DNA from: a virus
Lineage: Duplodnaviria > Heunggongvirae > Uroviricota > Caudoviricetes
Virus record (IMG/VR): IMGVR_UViG_2778261574_000002
Strand: one strand, 5' to 3'
DNA length: 64,000 nt
The position numbers and the translations under genes were made by a program. Position 1 is the stretch's first letter. Each line of letters begins with the position of its first letter. Below are positions 46,959 to 53,739 of this stretch, piece by piece. A model generated the notes under the pieces. That model searched no databases, was not told where the DNA came from, and saw only the letters and a program-made list of their open reading frames with translations.

Positions 46959-47591
46959 ATGTTTGTGCCTGTACTGTTAAAGGGGGACTCTAAAATGGCT
47001 GTGATTCCAATGTCGTACTCCCCGGGTACTGTTGCTCGTCGATTTTCGATCCTGGACGGAGTTACCATCCAGGGTGTGCTTTACCAGGTTATATGGGATT
47101 CCAAAACCCCATTTGCAGCTGTAATAGAGGCTGCGCCTTCTATTATCGATGGTGATATGCGCCATAAGGTTGTCGCTACTCTTGAACTTCAACGTCGCCC
47201 GCAGCTTGAAGGCGTACTGGTAAGGAAGTTCTGGGAGGATAGCGATGTTGCCCAGATTGAAGGTATCGTGGTTGATGGAACCGTCCGGGATGTCGGTTTA
47301 GCTACTTTTGTTTACGAAACCGTAGCCTCAAAAGCTGGTGTTGTTTTGCTCAGTGATAATGAGCAATACGAAGGTGGAAAAGCTCTTTGGCAACACATCG
47401 CCCGTCGCTCTTCCGAGCTAAAAGTGTTTATCCTTGACACCGATGCCGCTCAGTATTACCCGTTTGACGGCGAACGTGTTTGCTATGACGGGGTAAGTAT
47501 TCCTGAATCCGAGATATGGAGTGAACACCCAGATCGAAGTAAGCATGGGGTTGTTCTGGTCGCTGAATCCATAATTGGAAATGCGGCATAG
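46959..47591 (+). CDS. hypothetical protein
   Basis: 210-aa ORF, start uncertain. Confidence 0.45.
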   Translation: MFVPVLLKGDSKMAVIPMSYSPGTVARRFSILDGVTIQGVLYQVIWDSKTPFAAVIEAAPSIIDGDMRHKVVATLELQRRPQLEGVLVRKFWEDSDVAQIEGIVVDGTVRDVGLATFVYETVASKAGVVLLSDNEQYEGGKALWQHIARRSSELKVFILDTDAAQYYPFDGERVCYDGVSIPESEIWSEHPDRSKHGVVLVAESIIGNAA

Positions 47592-47773
47592 CAGTAAAAA
47601 ATTCCTTGCTCCTTAAAAGGGGAGAGGGTTAATCTACGTATGCTAAGCATAGAGATGGCCTCAGATTAATGTTAAGCGTCTTGCAGGACGCGTAATGTTA
47701 TCTGGGGCTTTCTTCTATCTGCTTTTCGGGTAATGCCTGAAGCAGATAGCCTCAAGCACCCGTAACGATTGTA

Positions 47774-48944: not shown

Positions 48945-49745
48945 TTAGCGCATTGCCGCGACAGGTACCAGCACACCAGCGTCAAGCAATCGCTTCATCA
49001 GCCACTGCTGACCTTTGCCGGTTATACGAGTCGTGAAAGAAATCCTGCTTCCGTTGCTTGTATCGATCACGGTTTCTTTAAGGGTGAAATACCCACGGGA
49101 TATGTATTCTTGTTTGGGGACGTTCCTGCGTTCACCGGTTGCGATCAGAATTCCGTTATCACGCAACCAGGTGAAGAGATAGTTTTGGCCCAGGCCGAGC
49201 ACTTTGGCATAGTTGCCGATTAGAACCCCGCTGGCGGTAGCAACGCGTTCGGCGAATTCGACTTTAGGTGCATCCATAAGCATTTTTTGCTCCAGCCGTT
49301 GCTTTTGCTCTGCCAGGTCGGCAGCCAAACGGAGAGCTTCAGGGAGACTCTGCGGAATAGCAGGTTGTAATCTTCCAGCTCGATAGTCGATAAATGTCTG
49401 GTTTACCTTCAGCCGAAACGCGGGAGAAATCCAGCCTGCGTACTCCACTGCGAGCAATTCATGGGCAAAAGTGCCGCCGCCACGGCCTTCGAACGAAACT
49501 ATGCAATTCTGCATAGTTTCTTTTTCAAGCTCTTCGATGAGCTGTTTAGCTGACAGCGTTCTTAGCCATTGAGCTGGCGCTTTATGGGCACCGAGTCCGC
49601 TCGCTCTGTGTAGAGCATTAAGGTTGTAACGGCCAGCGCGGTCGGTCGTAATTTCAACACCACAAATAACGGGCAGAGTGGTTGAAGGATCGACATTTTG
49701 ATGAAGGTTTGATATATTCATATCCGCATTGAATGTTTGTTGCAT
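48945..49745 (-). CDS. kilA: KilA-like protein
   Basis: 266 aa; C-terminal domain shared with the antirepressor (..PEALRLAADLAEQK..GKGQQWL..). Confidence 0.75.
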   Translation of the reverse strand: MQQTFNADMNISNLHQNVDPSTTLPVICGVEITTDRAGRYNLNALHRASGLGAHKAPAQWLRTLSAKQLIEELEKETMQNCIVSFEGRGGGTFAHELLAVEYAGWISPAFRLKVNQTFIDYRAGRLQPAIPQSLPEALRLAADLAEQKQRLEQKMLMDAPKVEFAERVATASGVLIGNYAKVLGLGQNYLFTWLRDNGILIATGERRNVPKQEYISRGYFTLKETVIDTSNGSRISFTTRITGKGQQWLMKRLLDAGVLVPVAAMR

Positions 49746-49814: not shown

Positions 49815-49831
49815 AAATTTATTAGAGCAAA
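49815..49831 (-). promoter_or_regulatory. C1 operator-like 17-mer (16/17)
   Basis: AAATTTATTAGAGCAAA on +; upstream of kilA. Confidence 0.6.
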
Positions 49832-49909: not shown

Positions 49910-50947
49910 TTAACCTATTGCTACTGGTTTTAACAAACCAGCATCAAGTAGCTTGCGAGTTAACCACTGCTGGCCTTTACCCGTTAATTGGGGCGTCAGC
50001 CGTATCTGGTAGCCATTTTCATCATCCAGCACCACTTCTTTCACCGTGAAATACCCGGCGTTAATGTACTGCTGGCGCGGTACGTTTTTGCGCGCACCAA
50101 AAGCCATGAGAATGCCGTTCTGGCGCAACCATGAGAAAAGGGCGTTTTGCTTAAGTCCAACGACCTTTGCAAAGTTCCCGATCAGGATTCCATTAGCCGC
50201 TGATACCCGGTCGGCAAAATCGACTTTAGGGGCTGCGGCCACCAGCTGTTGTTCCAACTGCATTTTCTGTTCTGCCAACTCGGCAGCCAGGCGTAGAGCT
50301 TCTGGTAATGTTTGGGGGATCGATGGGGCAGGGGAGTTTGCCTGCTGCAATTCTTCCAGTTTGTCGATCAGCGAACGGCGGACAGCTTTTGATTCGCGCG
50401 CGGCGACTCGCATGGCTTGTTTGAAAGTCATGGTTATGACAAGCATTGATGTTTTGTTCATTTTTTCCACTACACTTTTTGTGTAGTGCTCACCATCAAG
50501 CTCATCGAGTATTTTTTCTATGAATTTGTTGTTCCGAACCTCTGGTTCCCCACATAACTTACGCGCTTCATTGACCATCTTTAACAGTGTCAGGCTGTCG
50601 ATTGTGTCTCCGGTGTTGGGGATGATATTCACGGCTGGTGCTGGCGTAGCTGACGTAACAGGTGCTGTTTTTTCAACATTCAAATTATTACCGGTCATTC
50701 TATGTGCCTCCTTTCTCATTTCTGCTGCCACTGTTGCGTAACGTAGACGTCCTTGTTCAATCAAATAATCCCTGATCTCGGCTATCAGTAGCTTGTTGAT
50801 CACAGCCTTATCTGTTCGGGTATAAAAACGTCTGGTTATCATGAAATAGTTGGCAATTGCGCCGGGGATCTCCCGTGTCGGCATACAGGCAGTGTGCAGG
50901 GCGATCGCTTCGGCTATGTCATTACGGGTGACGAGAGGTTTTTTCAT
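49910..50947 (-). CDS. ant: antirepressor Ant
   Basis: 345 aa; shares the KilA C-terminal domain; start overlaps the icd stop (ATGA). Confidence 0.75.
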   Translation of the reverse strand: MKKPLVTRNDIAEAIALHTACMPTREIPGAIANYFMITRRFYTRTDKAVINKLLIAEIRDYLIEQGRLRYATVAAEMRKEAHRMTGNNLNVEKTAPVTSATPAPAVNIIPNTGDTIDSLTLLKMVNEARKLCGEPEVRNNKFIEKILDELDGEHYTKSVVEKMNKTSMLVITMTFKQAMRVAARESKAVRRSLIDKLEELQQANSPAPSIPQTLPEALRLAAELAEQKMQLEQQLVAAAPKVDFADRVSAANGILIGNFAKVVGLKQNALFSWLRQNGILMAFGARKNVPRQQYINAGYFTVKEVVLDDENGYQIRLTPQLTGKGQQWLTRKLLDAGLLKPVAIG

Positions 50948-51165
50948 AAACCCCCCTGAACGTCGGCAGAGAAGGGGAGGCTCCAGTAACTAAGTGAATT
51001 GCGCGAGTTAGTTGAAAAACGGGCAGTAAAAATGCAGGGGCCGTCAGGCAATTGAGAGCGTGCTTCGTCTTCTGTTGCTGCGATAACGAAGTGATAGTGG
51101 TGTTTTTTACAGGAATAGAAACGCCAGATGAATTCTTGGCGTGCGCAAGGATTGGCATTAACCAT
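50944..51165 (-). CDS. icd: Icd-like small protein
   Basis: 73-aa ORF coupled to ant; size and position match the cell-division-interfering gene of the immunity operon. Confidence 0.55.
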   Translation of the reverse strand: MVNANPCARQEFIWRFYSCKKHHYHFVIAATEDEARSQLPDGPCIFTARFSTNSRNSLSYWSLPFSADVQGGL

Positions 51166-51189
51166 AGTTACGGCCTCACAATCAGGTTT

Positions 51190-51400
51190 AACAACCTGCT
51201 ACCCGCTGTCAAACAGGTGGCAGGACGTGACAGGGTTGACAGACTGGCGATTGTGAAACCAGCAGGCCGAAGCCTCCCCATCACGCCCCACCATAATTTG
51301 GGCGTAACGCGGTTTAACGGACACAAAAATACCGCAATATCGGAAATCTGCGGTTGTCCGCACAATCATTCAGGCTGTCAAACCTGGTCGCAGAATTTGC
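51190..51400 (-). ncRNA. candidate C4-type antisense RNA region
   Basis: Leader between operator and icd with GCTGTCAAAC at 51205-51214 and 51374-51383 and a near-complementary GTTGACAG at 51235-51242. Confidence 0.35.
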
Positions 51401-51479
51401 TACGACGGCGGAACTATAAGCCTGAACGATTAAAAGGTCAATATGATGCGAAAAGATAGCATTCGTGACTTAAAAATAC

Positions 51480-51496
51480 AAATTTATTAGAGCATT
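51480..51496 (-). promoter_or_regulatory. C1 operator-like 17-mer (16/17)
   Basis: AAATTTATTAGAGCATT on +; upstream of the antirepressor operon. Confidence 0.6.
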
Positions 51497-51592
51497 GTTT
51501 GTTTAATAAATGCACAATTGGATCTAATAACCTCTTTTTTTTAAAGGCGAAAATATGTACCCTAAATGAGTTATAAGGCAGGTGAGGTTATA

Positions 51593-52084
51593 ATGAGAAA
51601 ACTATTACTACCGTTATTATTTATGGCTGGGACTGTTAATGCAGCATCAAGCGTAAAGGAGATTTGTACCGATTATACGAAATACCTTGGGCACGTTTAC
51701 GGATTTGCTGTCAGTGAAGACGAATCCATGCGCAAGAAGTTACTGTCAGATATGAAGCGCCTTAAACTTTCTGAAGCGATGGTGCAGCAGGAACTGTATA
51801 AAGTCTCAACCAACGCAAATGCTAAATACCAATATTCTCGCCTATTAAACCCCGATGCAAATGAGATCAATCGAAGCACTTTCGATTATATGGTAAAGGC
51901 ATGCGAAACCGCTCCTGATTTTGCTATCCCTAGCTGGGGTGTGCTGGTGGCGAGCAATGCCGTTAATAAAGAAGATGTTGGAAGAAATGGCATTGACTCA
52001 ATCAGAAATGCCCCAGGAATGCGCCATCAAAACGTGCAGGGTACGCTTGAAGAACGAGCCAGGGGGCCGGGTGTAGCTCCATAA
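51593..52084 (+). CDS. exported protein with Sit-mimicking C-terminal tail
   Basis: 163 aa from MRKLLLPLLFMAGTVNA (signal peptide) after GGTGAGG; C-terminus ..GIDSIRNAPGMRHQNVQGTLEERARGPG. Confidence 0.55.
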   Translation: MRKLLLPLLFMAGTVNAASSVKEICTDYTKYLGHVYGFAVSEDESMRKKLLSDMKRLKLSEAMVQQELYKVSTNANAKYQYSRLLNPDANEINRSTFDYMVKACETAPDFAIPSWGVLVASNAVNKEDVGRNGIDSIRNAPGMRHQNVQGTLEERARGPGVAP

Positions 52085-52172
52085 TTTAATGAATAATATT
52101 AAATTCTCTGGGCATAGTGGATCTAACAATATGGACTATGCCTATAATATCTAAAACAAAAAGGATAAAAAT

Positions 52173-52679
52173 ATGAAATTATATAAGTCATTGTATAGCT
52201 TTTTATTAATGTCCTCTTTTCTGCCATTATCAGCAATGGCAGGTTCTACCGTTTGGACGGTAGGAGGTGAGCAAGGGTGGAGAGAAATCTCTGCAACCAA
52301 TGACGATGGTTATACAATTAACTTTTCTTGTGATGCTGGAGCAAGGGAAGGTTCAGAAGATCATATCGCTGGAAGAAATTTGTATGTAAGCGGAGGAAAA
52401 GAGAATGCCGATTTTTCTACACGCGACACAATATCACGTAAAGCAGATGTAATTACTTTAATTGTTGGCCCGGATAGTTTTAATATTGGCACGCAAAACA
52501 CTGCTCCTAATCGTAGGGAATGGTATTCATTTTGGAAGGCAGTGTCATCTACAAATGAAAAAAACATAGATGTATATATCGGTTCGAGTCGAATCACATC
52601 ATTCACTCTGGATGGTATTTCCAGTATTTATACAGAAGCTAAAAATGACGGGTGTTTAAAACAAGATGACGGTGAATAA
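52173..52679 (+). CDS. exported hypothetical protein
   Basis: 168 aa; signal peptide MKLYKSLYSFLLMSSFLPLSAMA; AT-rich. Confidence 0.55.
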   Translation: MKLYKSLYSFLLMSSFLPLSAMAGSTVWTVGGEQGWREISATNDDGYTINFSCDAGAREGSEDHIAGRNLYVSGGKENADFSTRDTISRKADVITLIVGPDSFNIGTQNTAPNRREWYSFWKAVSSTNEKNIDVYIGSSRITSFTLDGISSIYTEAKNDGCLKQDDGE

Positions 52680-53739
52680 AGTGAAGGATATTAAACACAT
52701 TTCGCTTAACTCTAATAATAAAGCTGAAGGCACTGCCTTTTATGATTATTTAAATGAAATTAAAGGAGTGAGGCATAAAAAGATAAGTGGTTTATTAAAT
52801 TCAGAATATATTTACAAGAGTTTAGTTAAACAGTTTGGAACAGTTAAAAAACAAGAATTAATTAATGATTGTTTTCGAAAAGAACTTGAGTCTTTACCAA
52901 AAGTTACGAGAATTGCACACCAGTTTCGTGAACAAATGGTATTTTTACAGAAACAGTATCAGGCGGCTTTTCCCAGTGATGCAAATGAGCATATTCAAAT
53001 AATTAAAAATCAAGCTGAAATGGCTATGCCGTTACGAAAACACTCAGAAGCCATTAATAAGATAGCTGGCTTAAATAATATGGAGGAGGTATTTAAAGAA
53101 TTACACTCTAATATAAATTACAAAATTAAGATAAGCAAAGATATTAAAGAAATAATAAAGCAGTATAATAAAACAAGAAGTGTATTATTAGAGCAAGTAG
53201 TAGAGCTTGGGCTTGTTACTATCGCGCAGGCTTATGCTAATGATTCTATAAAATCAGCGCATACCGAAAGTGAGCATCAAAACAAAGGATTTAATAAATC
53301 TAGTTCGACGTTTTTTGATTCATTTAAGGCGCTTCCTTCTCCTATTCAGATCTTCCTTCTGTGGATTTTTTATCAAGTGGTGCTTGGCGCTATAACTGAT
53401 TATGCAAAAGAAAAGACATTATCGCAAATTTACAAGATGGAATCATATCTTCTATCTCTAAATGAGGATAAGCCAATATCTAAGCAAAAGCTAACACAAG
53501 AAAATAAAGATATTCAGTGGGAGGATCTTAATAATTTTAGAGCTATAACAGGTGATAACGTAAGGTTGCATGTCGGCCCTTCTTTAAATAGTGAAGTGAT
53601 TGAATGCATTGGCAAAAACACAATTGTTGCTATTTTAGATAAGAAAGATCGTCAATGGCTTTACGTGCAGGTTAAATCAGGGGATGAGTTTATTACTGGT
53701 TGGATTACACGAACATACACAAAGCCTCTTAAGGCTTGA
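52666..53739 (+). CDS. membrane protein with C-terminal SH3b-like domain
   Basis: 357-aa ORF (start uncertain, ATG 52666 or GTG ~52681); hydrophobic IQIFLLWIFYQVVLGAI; C-terminal ..RLHVGPSLNSEVIECIGKNTIVAILDKKDRQWLYVQV... Confidence 0.45.
   Translation: MTVNKVKDIKHISLNSNNKAEGTAFYDYLNEIKGVRHKKISGLLNSEYIYKSLVKQFGTVKKQELINDCFRKELESLPKVTRIAHQFREQMVFLQKQYQAAFPSDANEHIQIIKNQAEMAMPLRKHSEAINKIAGLNNMEEVFKELHSNINYKIKISKDIKEIIKQYNKTRSVLLEQVVELGLVTIAQAYANDSIKSAHTESEHQNKGFNKSSSTFFDSFKALPSPIQIFLLWIFYQVVLGAITDYAKEKTLSQIYKMESYLLSLNEDKPISKQKLTQENKDIQWEDLNNFRAITGDNVRLHVGPSLNSEVIECIGKNTIVAILDKKDRQWLYVQVKSGDEFITGWITRTYTKPLKA

Follow-up and report, generated by a model that had tools for sequence, protein, structure and literature searches.

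A c4 antisense RNA of the P1/P7 immI type, its a/b allele and an IsrK-like leader segment in a phage-plasmid sequence

The stretch of viral DNA analyzed here (64,000 nucleotides, referred to as the window) almost certainly carries, on its minus strand, the immI immunity operon of a P1/P7-like phage-plasmid with a c4 antisense RNA switch as in P1. The c4/immI feature is a textbook system and already known; Citron and Schuster reportedly described the c4 antisense RNA and the immI operon of P1 and P7 in 1990. Added here are the exact coordinates, the b elements, the assignment of the allele to the JL22 type, an allele matrix with covariation at three sites and an IsrK-like a1-b1 segment. In comparison with immI of P1 and P7 (RF01695, RF03163), the whole architecture and nearly all of the sequence are alike, from Op51 through icd overlapping ant1/ant2, and the difference lies in the a/b combination, which in the window is a P1-type a with a P7-type b.

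Organization of the operon and the c4 RNA

A megablast search with positions 50900-51560 gave identities of 96.7% to P1, 97.6% to P7 and 98.7% to JL22, all of them Punavirus, and the GenBank records of P1 and P7 can be aligned to these positions base by base. The order on the minus strand is C1 operator Op51, promoters P51a/P51b, a1-b1, c4 RNA, a2-b2, icd and ant1/ant2. The P1 RefSeq record is colinear with it, listing Oc4 (formerly Op51), P2c4 (P51a), P1c4 (P51b), a1, b1, c4, a2, b2, icd, ant1 and ant2. There, c4 is a 77-nt misc_RNA, a1 and b1 are labelled 'putative' target sites for C4 RNA, and the a2 and b2 target sites bear the remark 'in icd ant mRNA; repression of icd ant translation'. 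The c4 label of the P7 record reads 'antisense RNA acting on targets icd and ant transcribed from the same promoter'. The features are as follows:

51480..51496, minus: C1 repressor operator Op51 (Oc4), AATGCTCTAATAAATTT; found by pattern search with one mismatch to the consensus, colinear with P1 Oc4 and P7 Op(c4)
51453..51482, minus: promoter P51a (P2c4), its -35 overlapping the operator; coordinates transferred from the P1 annotation via the alignment
51413..51441, minus: promoter P51b (P1c4), sigma-70, TTGACC, 17-nt spacer, TATAGT; consensus scan 10/12, same position as P1c4
51367..51419, minus: c4-a1b1 motif, hairpin GUCGUAGC..GCGAC, then a CAGG-UUUGACAG-CCUG hairpin with a1 in the loop; Rfam RF03163 and fold
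51375..51381, minus: a1 target site UUGACAG (P1 type); repeat search, P1 annotation ('putative'), covariation with a' in 27/27 distinct leaders
51361..51367, minus: b1 target site GAUUGUG (P7 type); perfect 7-nt complement of b', double-sided changes at six positions
51321..51354, minus: terminator-like hairpin ACCGCAG-loop-UUGCGGU followed by AUUUUUGUGU, putative IsrK-like 3' end; isrK alignment and centroid fold
51216..51292, minus: c4 antisense RNA, 77 nt, GGUGGGG...CCUGCCACC; Rfam RF01695, colinear P1/P7 misc_RNA, fold
51249..51256, minus: b' recognition sequence UCACAAUC (P7 type), loop of the second c4 hairpin; alignment, complementarity, fold
51236..51242, minus: a' recognition sequence CUGUCAA (P1 type), single-stranded c4 junction; alignment, complementarity, fold
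51206..51212, minus: a2 target site UUGACAG, icd/ant mRNA leader; repeat search, P1 misc_binding 'target site a2', covariation
51176..51183, minus: b2 target site GAUUGUGA; complementarity, P1 misc_binding 'target site b2', covariation
51174..51177, minus: icd Shine-Dalgarno sequence GAGG, overlapped by b2; 8 nt upstream of the icd ATG (51165)
50944..51165, minus: icd, 73 aa, cell-division inhibitor; ORF list, colinear with P1/P7 icd
49910..50947, minus: ant1, 345 aa; ORF list, Pfam ANT/KilAC domain (5.4e-31), P1/P7 annotation
48945..49745, minus: KilA-N/ANT ORF; ORF list, domain search

Transcription from P51b probably starts near 51406, and P51a drew no call in the promoter consensus scan. 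The icd stop codon overlaps the ant1 start (ATGA), and ant2 starts in the ant1 frame at 50698 (Met84), as in P1, ant1 and ant2 together being the antirepressor. The Icd relatives found in IMG/VR show 96-100% identity. Beyond the operator there is neither a full P1 sim operon nor P7 upf50.x, and two ORFs there showed no similarity to P7 Upf50.5 or Upf50.0.

The initial annotation had drawn attention to two copies of GCTGTCAAAC with a near-complementary GTTGACAG between them, located between the operator and icd. Exactly two copies are present in the 64-kb window (51205-51214 and 51374-51383), and GTTGACAG lies between them at 51235-51242, its core TTGACAG (51236-51242) being a perfect 7-nt inverted match to CTGTCAA in both. 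The repeats are indeed situated between the C1 operator and the icd start codon. Because the P1 coordinates were transferred through the alignment, the two copies of GCTGTCAAAC can be identified as a2 and a1, and GTTGACAG as a'. While the a set was found as described, a second, interleaved set b1/b'/b2 (GAUUGUG/CACAAUC) had been omitted, including the b pair at the icd ribosome-binding site: CACAATC at 51361-51367 and TCACAATC at 51176-51183 are both perfect complements of GATTGTG at 51249-51255. The interval 51190-51400 that had been singled out does not include b2 and the promoters. Shuffling of the window led to an expectation of 0.16 copies of GCTGTCAAAC, with at least two copies in 1 of 100 shuffles. 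By itself the repeat count is only modestly improbable; conservation and covariation in relatives place the arrangement far beyond chance.

The Rfam C4 family (RF01695) matches at 51213-51298 (minus) with 68.4 bits against a gathering threshold of 45 (E = 1.3e-12, model positions 1-87 of 87), and c4-a1b1 (RF03163) matches over its full model (1-53) at 51367-51419 (minus) with 56.0 bits against a threshold of 46.7. No c4-type Rfam match was found elsewhere in the whole window. The minimum free energy (MFE) of the 77-nt c4 is -42 kcal/mol (z = -4.6), the centroid is identical to the MFE structure, and none of 200 shuffles folds as well. A closing stem of 17 bp encloses two hairpins and leaves an unpaired ACC at the 3' end, in agreement with the Rfam consensus structure line. 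The first hairpin is capped by UUCG, the loop of the second (UUUCACAAU) carries b', and the unpaired junction UCUGUCA carries a', so that both recognition sequences would be exposed in the predicted fold. Both hairpins of the c4-a1b1 motif were likewise recovered by folding, with a1 in the second loop. Complementarity of a' to a1 and a2 is perfect over 7 nt and that of b' to b1 and b2 over 7-8 nt. Of the 77 positions of c4, 2 are different in P1 c4 and 3 in P7 c4. As is characteristic of the C4 family, a' and b' have their complements, a2 and b2, farther downstream in one and the same strand, b2 lies at the icd ribosome-binding site, and the RNA is flanked by a C1-controlled operator/promoter upstream and icd-ant1/ant2 downstream. 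Read from the sequence, a b'-b2 duplex with two G-U pairs can span the whole icd Shine-Dalgarno sequence, and the duplex has a predicted energy of -17.6 kcal/mol.

The earlier proposal that an antisense RNA pairs with its own transcript and blocks icd/ant expression corresponds to the documented P1/P7 c4 system and is supported here by the Rfam matches, the colinear annotation and the compensatory variants. In P1, c4 is a stable 77-nt RNA derived from the operon transcript with its 5' end cut by RNase P, untranslated icd RNA also terminates prematurely (Rho-dependent polarity), and icd and ant are translationally coupled. The most likely mechanism in the window is the published P1 one, in which c4 would be excised from the operon transcript and pair in trans with a2 and b2. 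By analogy, a single precursor RNA transcribed from P51b and the C1-controlled P51a would contain a1-b1, the terminator-like hairpin, c4, a2-b2, icd and ant1/ant2, and c4 (51292..51216), with its tRNA-acceptor-like closing stem and unpaired ACC tail, would be cut from it. Acting on transcripts of the same operon, a' would pair with a2 and b' with b2, and icd translation would be blocked because b2 runs into the Shine-Dalgarno sequence GAGG. With icd untranslated, the ant1 start overlapping icd and transcription ending prematurely, the antirepressor would not be made; C1 would therefore stay active and lysogeny would be kept. The sequences of a and b would set the immI immunity specificity. According to published reviews, Ant synthesis is repressed by c4 through pairing in the region of the ribosome-binding site, and the heteroimmunity of P1 and P7 has its basis in c4 (PMC12197685, PMC8546580, PMC8201110). 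For the window, the mechanism is based on sequence identity to the annotated P1 and P7, family matches, fold, complementarities and covariation in the population; RNase P processing, trans repression, translational coupling and polarity come from work on P1.

The CI RNA of P4 acts by premature transcription termination of replication genes and not by occlusion of the ribosome-binding site of an antirepressor operon. It (seqA/seqB/seqC) resembles c4 in layout alone, being a short RNA processed from the leader of its own operon that has targets on both sides and sets immunity specificity (PMC4825925). In P22 immI, the small RNA sar blocks ant translation by pairing at the ribosome-binding site (PMC12197685). 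However, sar is a true cis-antisense RNA made from the opposite strand across its target, whereas c4 is co-transcribed on the same strand and makes two short discontinuous pairings. The elements in the window are not of the sar type (opposite strand, full target overlap), c4 and its targets being on one strand with complementary segments of 7-8 nt.

Compensatory variation among relatives

Related loci were sampled from IMG/VR by means of the Icd protein (80 loci, a sample unbiased as to c4) and by means of a c4 DNA pattern leaving a' and b' free (at least 120 loci), and eight named phages beyond P1 and P7 served for further comparison. Species-representative genomes scanned with Icd yielded 4 loci only, too few for distant relatives. 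In the Icd-based sample, 56 columns of the leader are variable, among them every one of the 24 core element positions, as compared with 32 of about 253 other columns. Among the 27 distinct leaders, standard pairs were present in 99.8% of the cells for a1:a' and b1:b' and in 97.9% for a':a2 and b':b2. In either case 8 pairs had changed on both sides and none on one side only. The covariation scores were 0.478 for a1:a' and b1:b' (0.187 when shuffled) and 0.448 for a':a2 and b':b2 (0.176 when shuffled), values reached by none of 500 shuffles; shuffle-based controls can be inflated by relatedness, but the slid controls, of which the best paired 44% and 51% of the cells, respectively, as well as the assortment of the types argue against such inflation here. 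Double-sided compensatory changes occurred at every variable pairing position among the natural variants. All detectable sites were mutually consistent, with the three copies of each element changing together, in 119 of 120 independent IMG/VR loci among the matches listed.

This covariation is natural compensatory evidence for the predicted RNA pairing, including that of the 'putative' a1 and b1 sites. At the level of sequence comparison it is nature's counterpart of disrupting and then restoring complementarity, and it is as strict for a1/b1 as for a2/b2. Since covariation with a' and b' is no less strict for a1 and b1 than for the proven targets a2 and b2, the comparison shows that the predicted pairing of a1/b1 with c4 is under selection, while the manner of its action is left unspecified by the covariation.

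The upstream leader and other readings of the repeats

Positions 51406..51326 (minus) align over the full Rfam model of the Hfq-binding RNA isrK (RF01394, 1-77) with 43.0 bits (E = 2.4e-7), which is below the gathering threshold of 50, and the alignment begins at the predicted start of P51b. The segment consists of two 5' hairpins, the second with a1 in its loop, a single-stranded b1, a hairpin at 51354..51331 and then AUUUUUGUGU. The hairpin and the following AUUUUU are kept in all leaders, and the centroid fold supports the hairpin. The a1-b1 segment is likely an IsrK homologue, as suggested by this alignment, and we do not file it as a member of the family.

In Gifsy-1, a Rho-independent terminator sets the end of the short IsrK RNA, and transcripts that read through it form the orf45-antirepressor mRNA; farther downstream follows STnc1160, a processed species of about 80 nt with complementarity to IsrK (PMC4825925). 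IsrK activates translation in trans, and the authors liken the system to CI/seqA of P4 (PMC4825925). The Gifsy-1 IsrK/STnc1160/orf45-anrP region (RF01394) and the window are alike in having a promoter-proximal structured RNA with a hairpin and U-run, then a complementary RNA of about 80 nt and next a small ORF translationally coupled to an antirepressor gene. In contrast, the regulator studied in Gifsy-1 is the upstream RNA, which activates, whereas in P1-type phages it is the downstream c4, which represses.

It is conceivable, though on balance we rather doubt it, that c4 has a further, or even its main, target in the part of the leader that precedes it, and that a1-b1, the hairpin and the U-run (51406..51321) form an IsrK-like unit serving either as a decoy sRNA that titrates c4 or as a c4-dependent attenuator. 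As a decoy, the short terminated RNA would be an anti-antisense RNA, much as IsrK activates orf45-anrP in Gifsy-1. As an attenuator, binding of c4 to nascent a1/b1 would promote termination at the hairpin, like P4 CI with seqA, and c4 and the operon would be autoregulated. Such a unit is consistent with the full-length isrK alignment from the predicted P51b start, the conserved hairpin and AUUUUU with the agreeing centroid fold, the covariation of a1/b1 and the Gifsy-1 precedent of a terminated IsrK, a read-through antirepressor mRNA and a complementary RNA of about 80 nt downstream (PMC4825925). However, the isrK score remains under the gathering threshold, the MFE fold of the upstream leader prefers another small hairpin with a z of -2.2 only, and the hairpin stem displays no compensatory changes among the relatives. 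A terminator scan of 51100-51600 made no call at all, its loop limit of 8 nt excluding the 10-nt loop of the hairpin. Furthermore, transcription of c4 and icd/ant must pass the hairpin, so termination could only be partial. To our knowledge, a short a1b1 RNA has not been reported for P1. An action on the upstream leader extends the classical c4 model and does not replace it.

It is very improbable that the repeats are DNA sites for a sequence-specific protein, with two direct copies and one inverted copy covarying through co-evolution with that protein. An inverted copy is the same site on DNA, and in formal terms recognition by a protein could also account for a1, a' and a2 changing in concert. 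Nevertheless, the two independently assorting sets a and b would need two proteins switching specificity, and no co-varying protein gene is found nearby. Moreover, a' and b' fall exactly within the unpaired segments of an RNA that has a strong structure and fits a curated covariance model, b2 overlaps the icd Shine-Dalgarno sequence, and the only operator type known there, that of C1, is separate (51480-51496). The P1/P7 annotation and the literature assign the sites to C4 RNA binding (PMC12197685).

Even less credible is a small protein encoded in the interval (the historical 'c4 CDS') with merely incidental repeats. Overlapping ORFs do exist at 51199..51369 (minus, 56 aa) and 51168..51365 (minus, 65 aa), and a CDS is annotated there as JL22 gp42 and phi456 Orf29, in both a 56-aa 'hypothetical protein', and in the old record X15639. 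However, 11 of 27 natural leader variants carry ATA or AAA in place of the start codon, in P1-type variants the reading frame is displaced by a 1-nt indel, and an in-frame stop interrupts one variant (L004, seen 7 times). The variable positions change in concert with b2, a site not included in the ORF, and c4 is annotated as an RNA in both P1 and P7. The protein-coding reading of the c4 interval was rejected on account of the lost start codon, the shifted frame and the in-frame stop. That the repeats are functionless products of chance is just as implausible, and the comparative data have already refuted it. Repeats of this length in two copies are common, and one of 100 shuffles of the window also had two copies of the 10-mer, but more than 200 related loci have these six elements in identical places and show strictly concerted changes in them, and the family-level covariance-model matches likewise argue against chance.

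Allele type, specificity and significance

The c4 antisense RNA of the window combines elements known from two phages. In P1, a is UUGACAG and b is GUUAGUG, and in P7, a is UUAGCAG and b is GAUUGUG. The window has the P1 a-type (GACAG) at all three a sites and the P7 b-type (GAUUGU) at all three b sites, a type that is neither that of P1 nor that of P7 and is the same as in phage JL22. The initial annotation was silent on this point. At least 15 PLSDB plasmids of E. coli, E. albertii and Salmonella carry the 276-nt leader with 100% identity, and 59 PLSDB records, out of 575 with a match, are at least 99% identical to it. The census of at least 120 loci revealed two a-types (GA, AG) and at least seven b-types (GAUUGU, GUUAGU, ACUUAC, GUACAU, ACGAAU, ACUUGU, GUUCAA), and at least 12 of the 14 possible a/b combinations were seen (about 200 related loci; census of at least 120 loci). 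The type of the window was present in 11 of 120 loci among the matches listed.

Judged from its recognition sequences, the c4 of the window should be fully complementary to its own targets, and with the targets of P1 or P7 only one of the two sites should fit. The predicted duplex energies were -26.5 kcal/mol with its own targets, -19.9 with P1 targets and -21.4 with P7 targets, a gap of only 5-7 kcal/mol between cognate and half-matched targets, and about -10.5 kcal/mol with targets matched in neither element. We infer from these predictions that, at immI, the element would show at least partial heteroimmunity towards both P1 and P7.

Since the order of the six interleaved sites is a1 b1 ... 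b' a' a2 b2, the swapping of one module needs several short conversion patches or repeated selection. A SNP at 51232, between a' and a2, follows the a-type without exception, which would fit a single conversion patch spanning a' through a2. Two to four c4-icd-ant modules on one element were found in at least nine contigs, always of different types; none of about 14 within-contig module pairs was identical, for which the chance is about 13% as estimated from the type frequencies of the census.

Taken together, c4 may represent a two-part combinatorial address (a x b), each part of which is matched at three interleaved sites, with the a1/b1 leader segment and its IsrK-like hairpin as a functional c4 partner, either a decoy sRNA or a c4-dependent attenuator. 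We put this forward tentatively, as a possibility that we do not favor at present. No published account of c4 allele diversity or of an allele matrix and no description of the IsrK-like character of the a1-b1 segment were found in the literature searched, whose scope did not extend to key subscription papers; the allele diversity may already be published. The allele matrix and the IsrK-like a1-b1 segment are thus of possible, modest novelty.

For the window, the annotation is settled as the c4 immunity RNA with four target sites and not a protein gene, while automated annotations of the close relatives JL22 (gp42) and phi456 (Orf29) still place a hypothetical protein over c4. The natural compensatory changes provide evidence that the a1/b1 sites are functional. 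If the combinatorial proposal is true, the 5' segment of the leader would be a c4 partner absent from the present P1 model, many heteroimmune immI specificities could coexist, and two to four orthogonal c4-icd-ant modules could reside on one element. The allele survey offers a simple sequence-based typing scheme, and the a/b type predicts superinfection and induction among P1-like phage-plasmids at the immI level, which matters for elements carrying resistance genes in Escherichia and Salmonella.

Variation at the c4 pairing elements

The recognition sequences of the antisense RNA c4 (a' and b') and their target sites upstream (a1, b1) and downstream (a2, b2) fall into allele classes, the a-types and b-types. 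Two positions beside the a elements were found to vary with the a-type:

51232 (minus strand), within the c4 stem: a U/C position in perfect linkage with the a-type
51385 (minus strand), adjoining a1: A or G, following the a-type in most cases

With these two positions included, the complementarity between a' and a1 spans some 12-16 nt, of which 1-2 are mismatched. Their association with the a-type may mean that the a1 duplex extends further, or merely that they are linked within a conversion patch.

A single inconsistent locus was present among the 120 listed IMG/VR c4 loci, namely L008/L131 on IMGVR_UViG_2565956613_000015 (4.9 kb), where the ACGAAU type of b1 and b' is combined with a b2 of the P1 type GUUAGU. 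Since the b2 type is unlike that of b', c4 is predicted not to cover the icd ribosome-binding site, and the locus may represent a recombinant that is insensitive to c4 and virulent-like, or else an assembly chimera. A rare natural case in which b1 pairing alone is disrupted is provided by phage vB_EcoM-673R5 (L085), where GG is inserted in b1 (ACGGGAAUG) and both b' and b2 correspond to ACGAAUG.

Additional c4 modules and annotation of the c4 interval

At least nine IMG/VR contigs carry 2-4 c4 loci each, with icd and an ant gene recognisable downstream of most of them. Examples are:

IMGVR_UViG_2703718869_000013: loci L105, L140, L188 and L210
IMGVR_UViG_651053023_000001: loci L102, L164 and L193

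The Icd/Ant paralogue of the additional modules on such contigs is diverged, and the b-type is GUACAU in most. The a-type or the b-type differs between co-resident modules in every case, in a sample small enough for this to arise by chance. Chimeric assembly may lie behind some of these contigs.

The published annotations of JL22 (gp42; L083 400-570) and phi456 (Orf29; L087 400-570) both place a 56-aa 'hypothetical protein' CDS across c4 and leave out the RNA. The counterpart of these two CDSs in the window is:

51199-51369 (minus strand): 56-aa ORF over c4

Neither the start codon nor the reading frame of this ORF is conserved among natural variants.

C1 operators, cargo and other RNA genes in the window

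A search with the C1 operator consensus ATTGCTCTAATAAATTT, allowing up to 3 mismatches, returned 10 matches (window 3878-51496) against 0.43 expected, including:

31148-31164: perfect match, overlapping a second copy of the site
49815-49831: Op53, upstream of kilA

Across the immI operator Op51 from immI, the sim slot (51566-53739, plus strand) holds a third cargo variant with three ORFs:

cargo ORF 1: 172 aa
cargo ORF 2: 168 aa
cargo ORF 3: 357 aa, with an SH3_3 domain

Cargo ORF 1 resembles P1 simA at its 5' end (first ~173 nt, 95% identity). The cargo showed no similarity to Upf50.5 or Upf50.0 of P7. P1-like plasmids from E. fergusonii and E. coli, e.g., NZ_CP057563.1 and CP057875.1, carry the cargo with 100% identity.

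Four tRNA genes are clustered on the minus strand (28282-30478):

28282-28354: tRNA gene 1
30233-30305: tRNA gene 2
30313-30396: tRNA gene 3
30405-30478: tRNA gene 4

Rfam further identified a sok antitoxin RNA:

47587-47761 (minus strand): RF01794 match, 91.4 bits (gathering score 59)

This match implies a putative hok/sok-type toxin-antitoxin module downstream of kilA.
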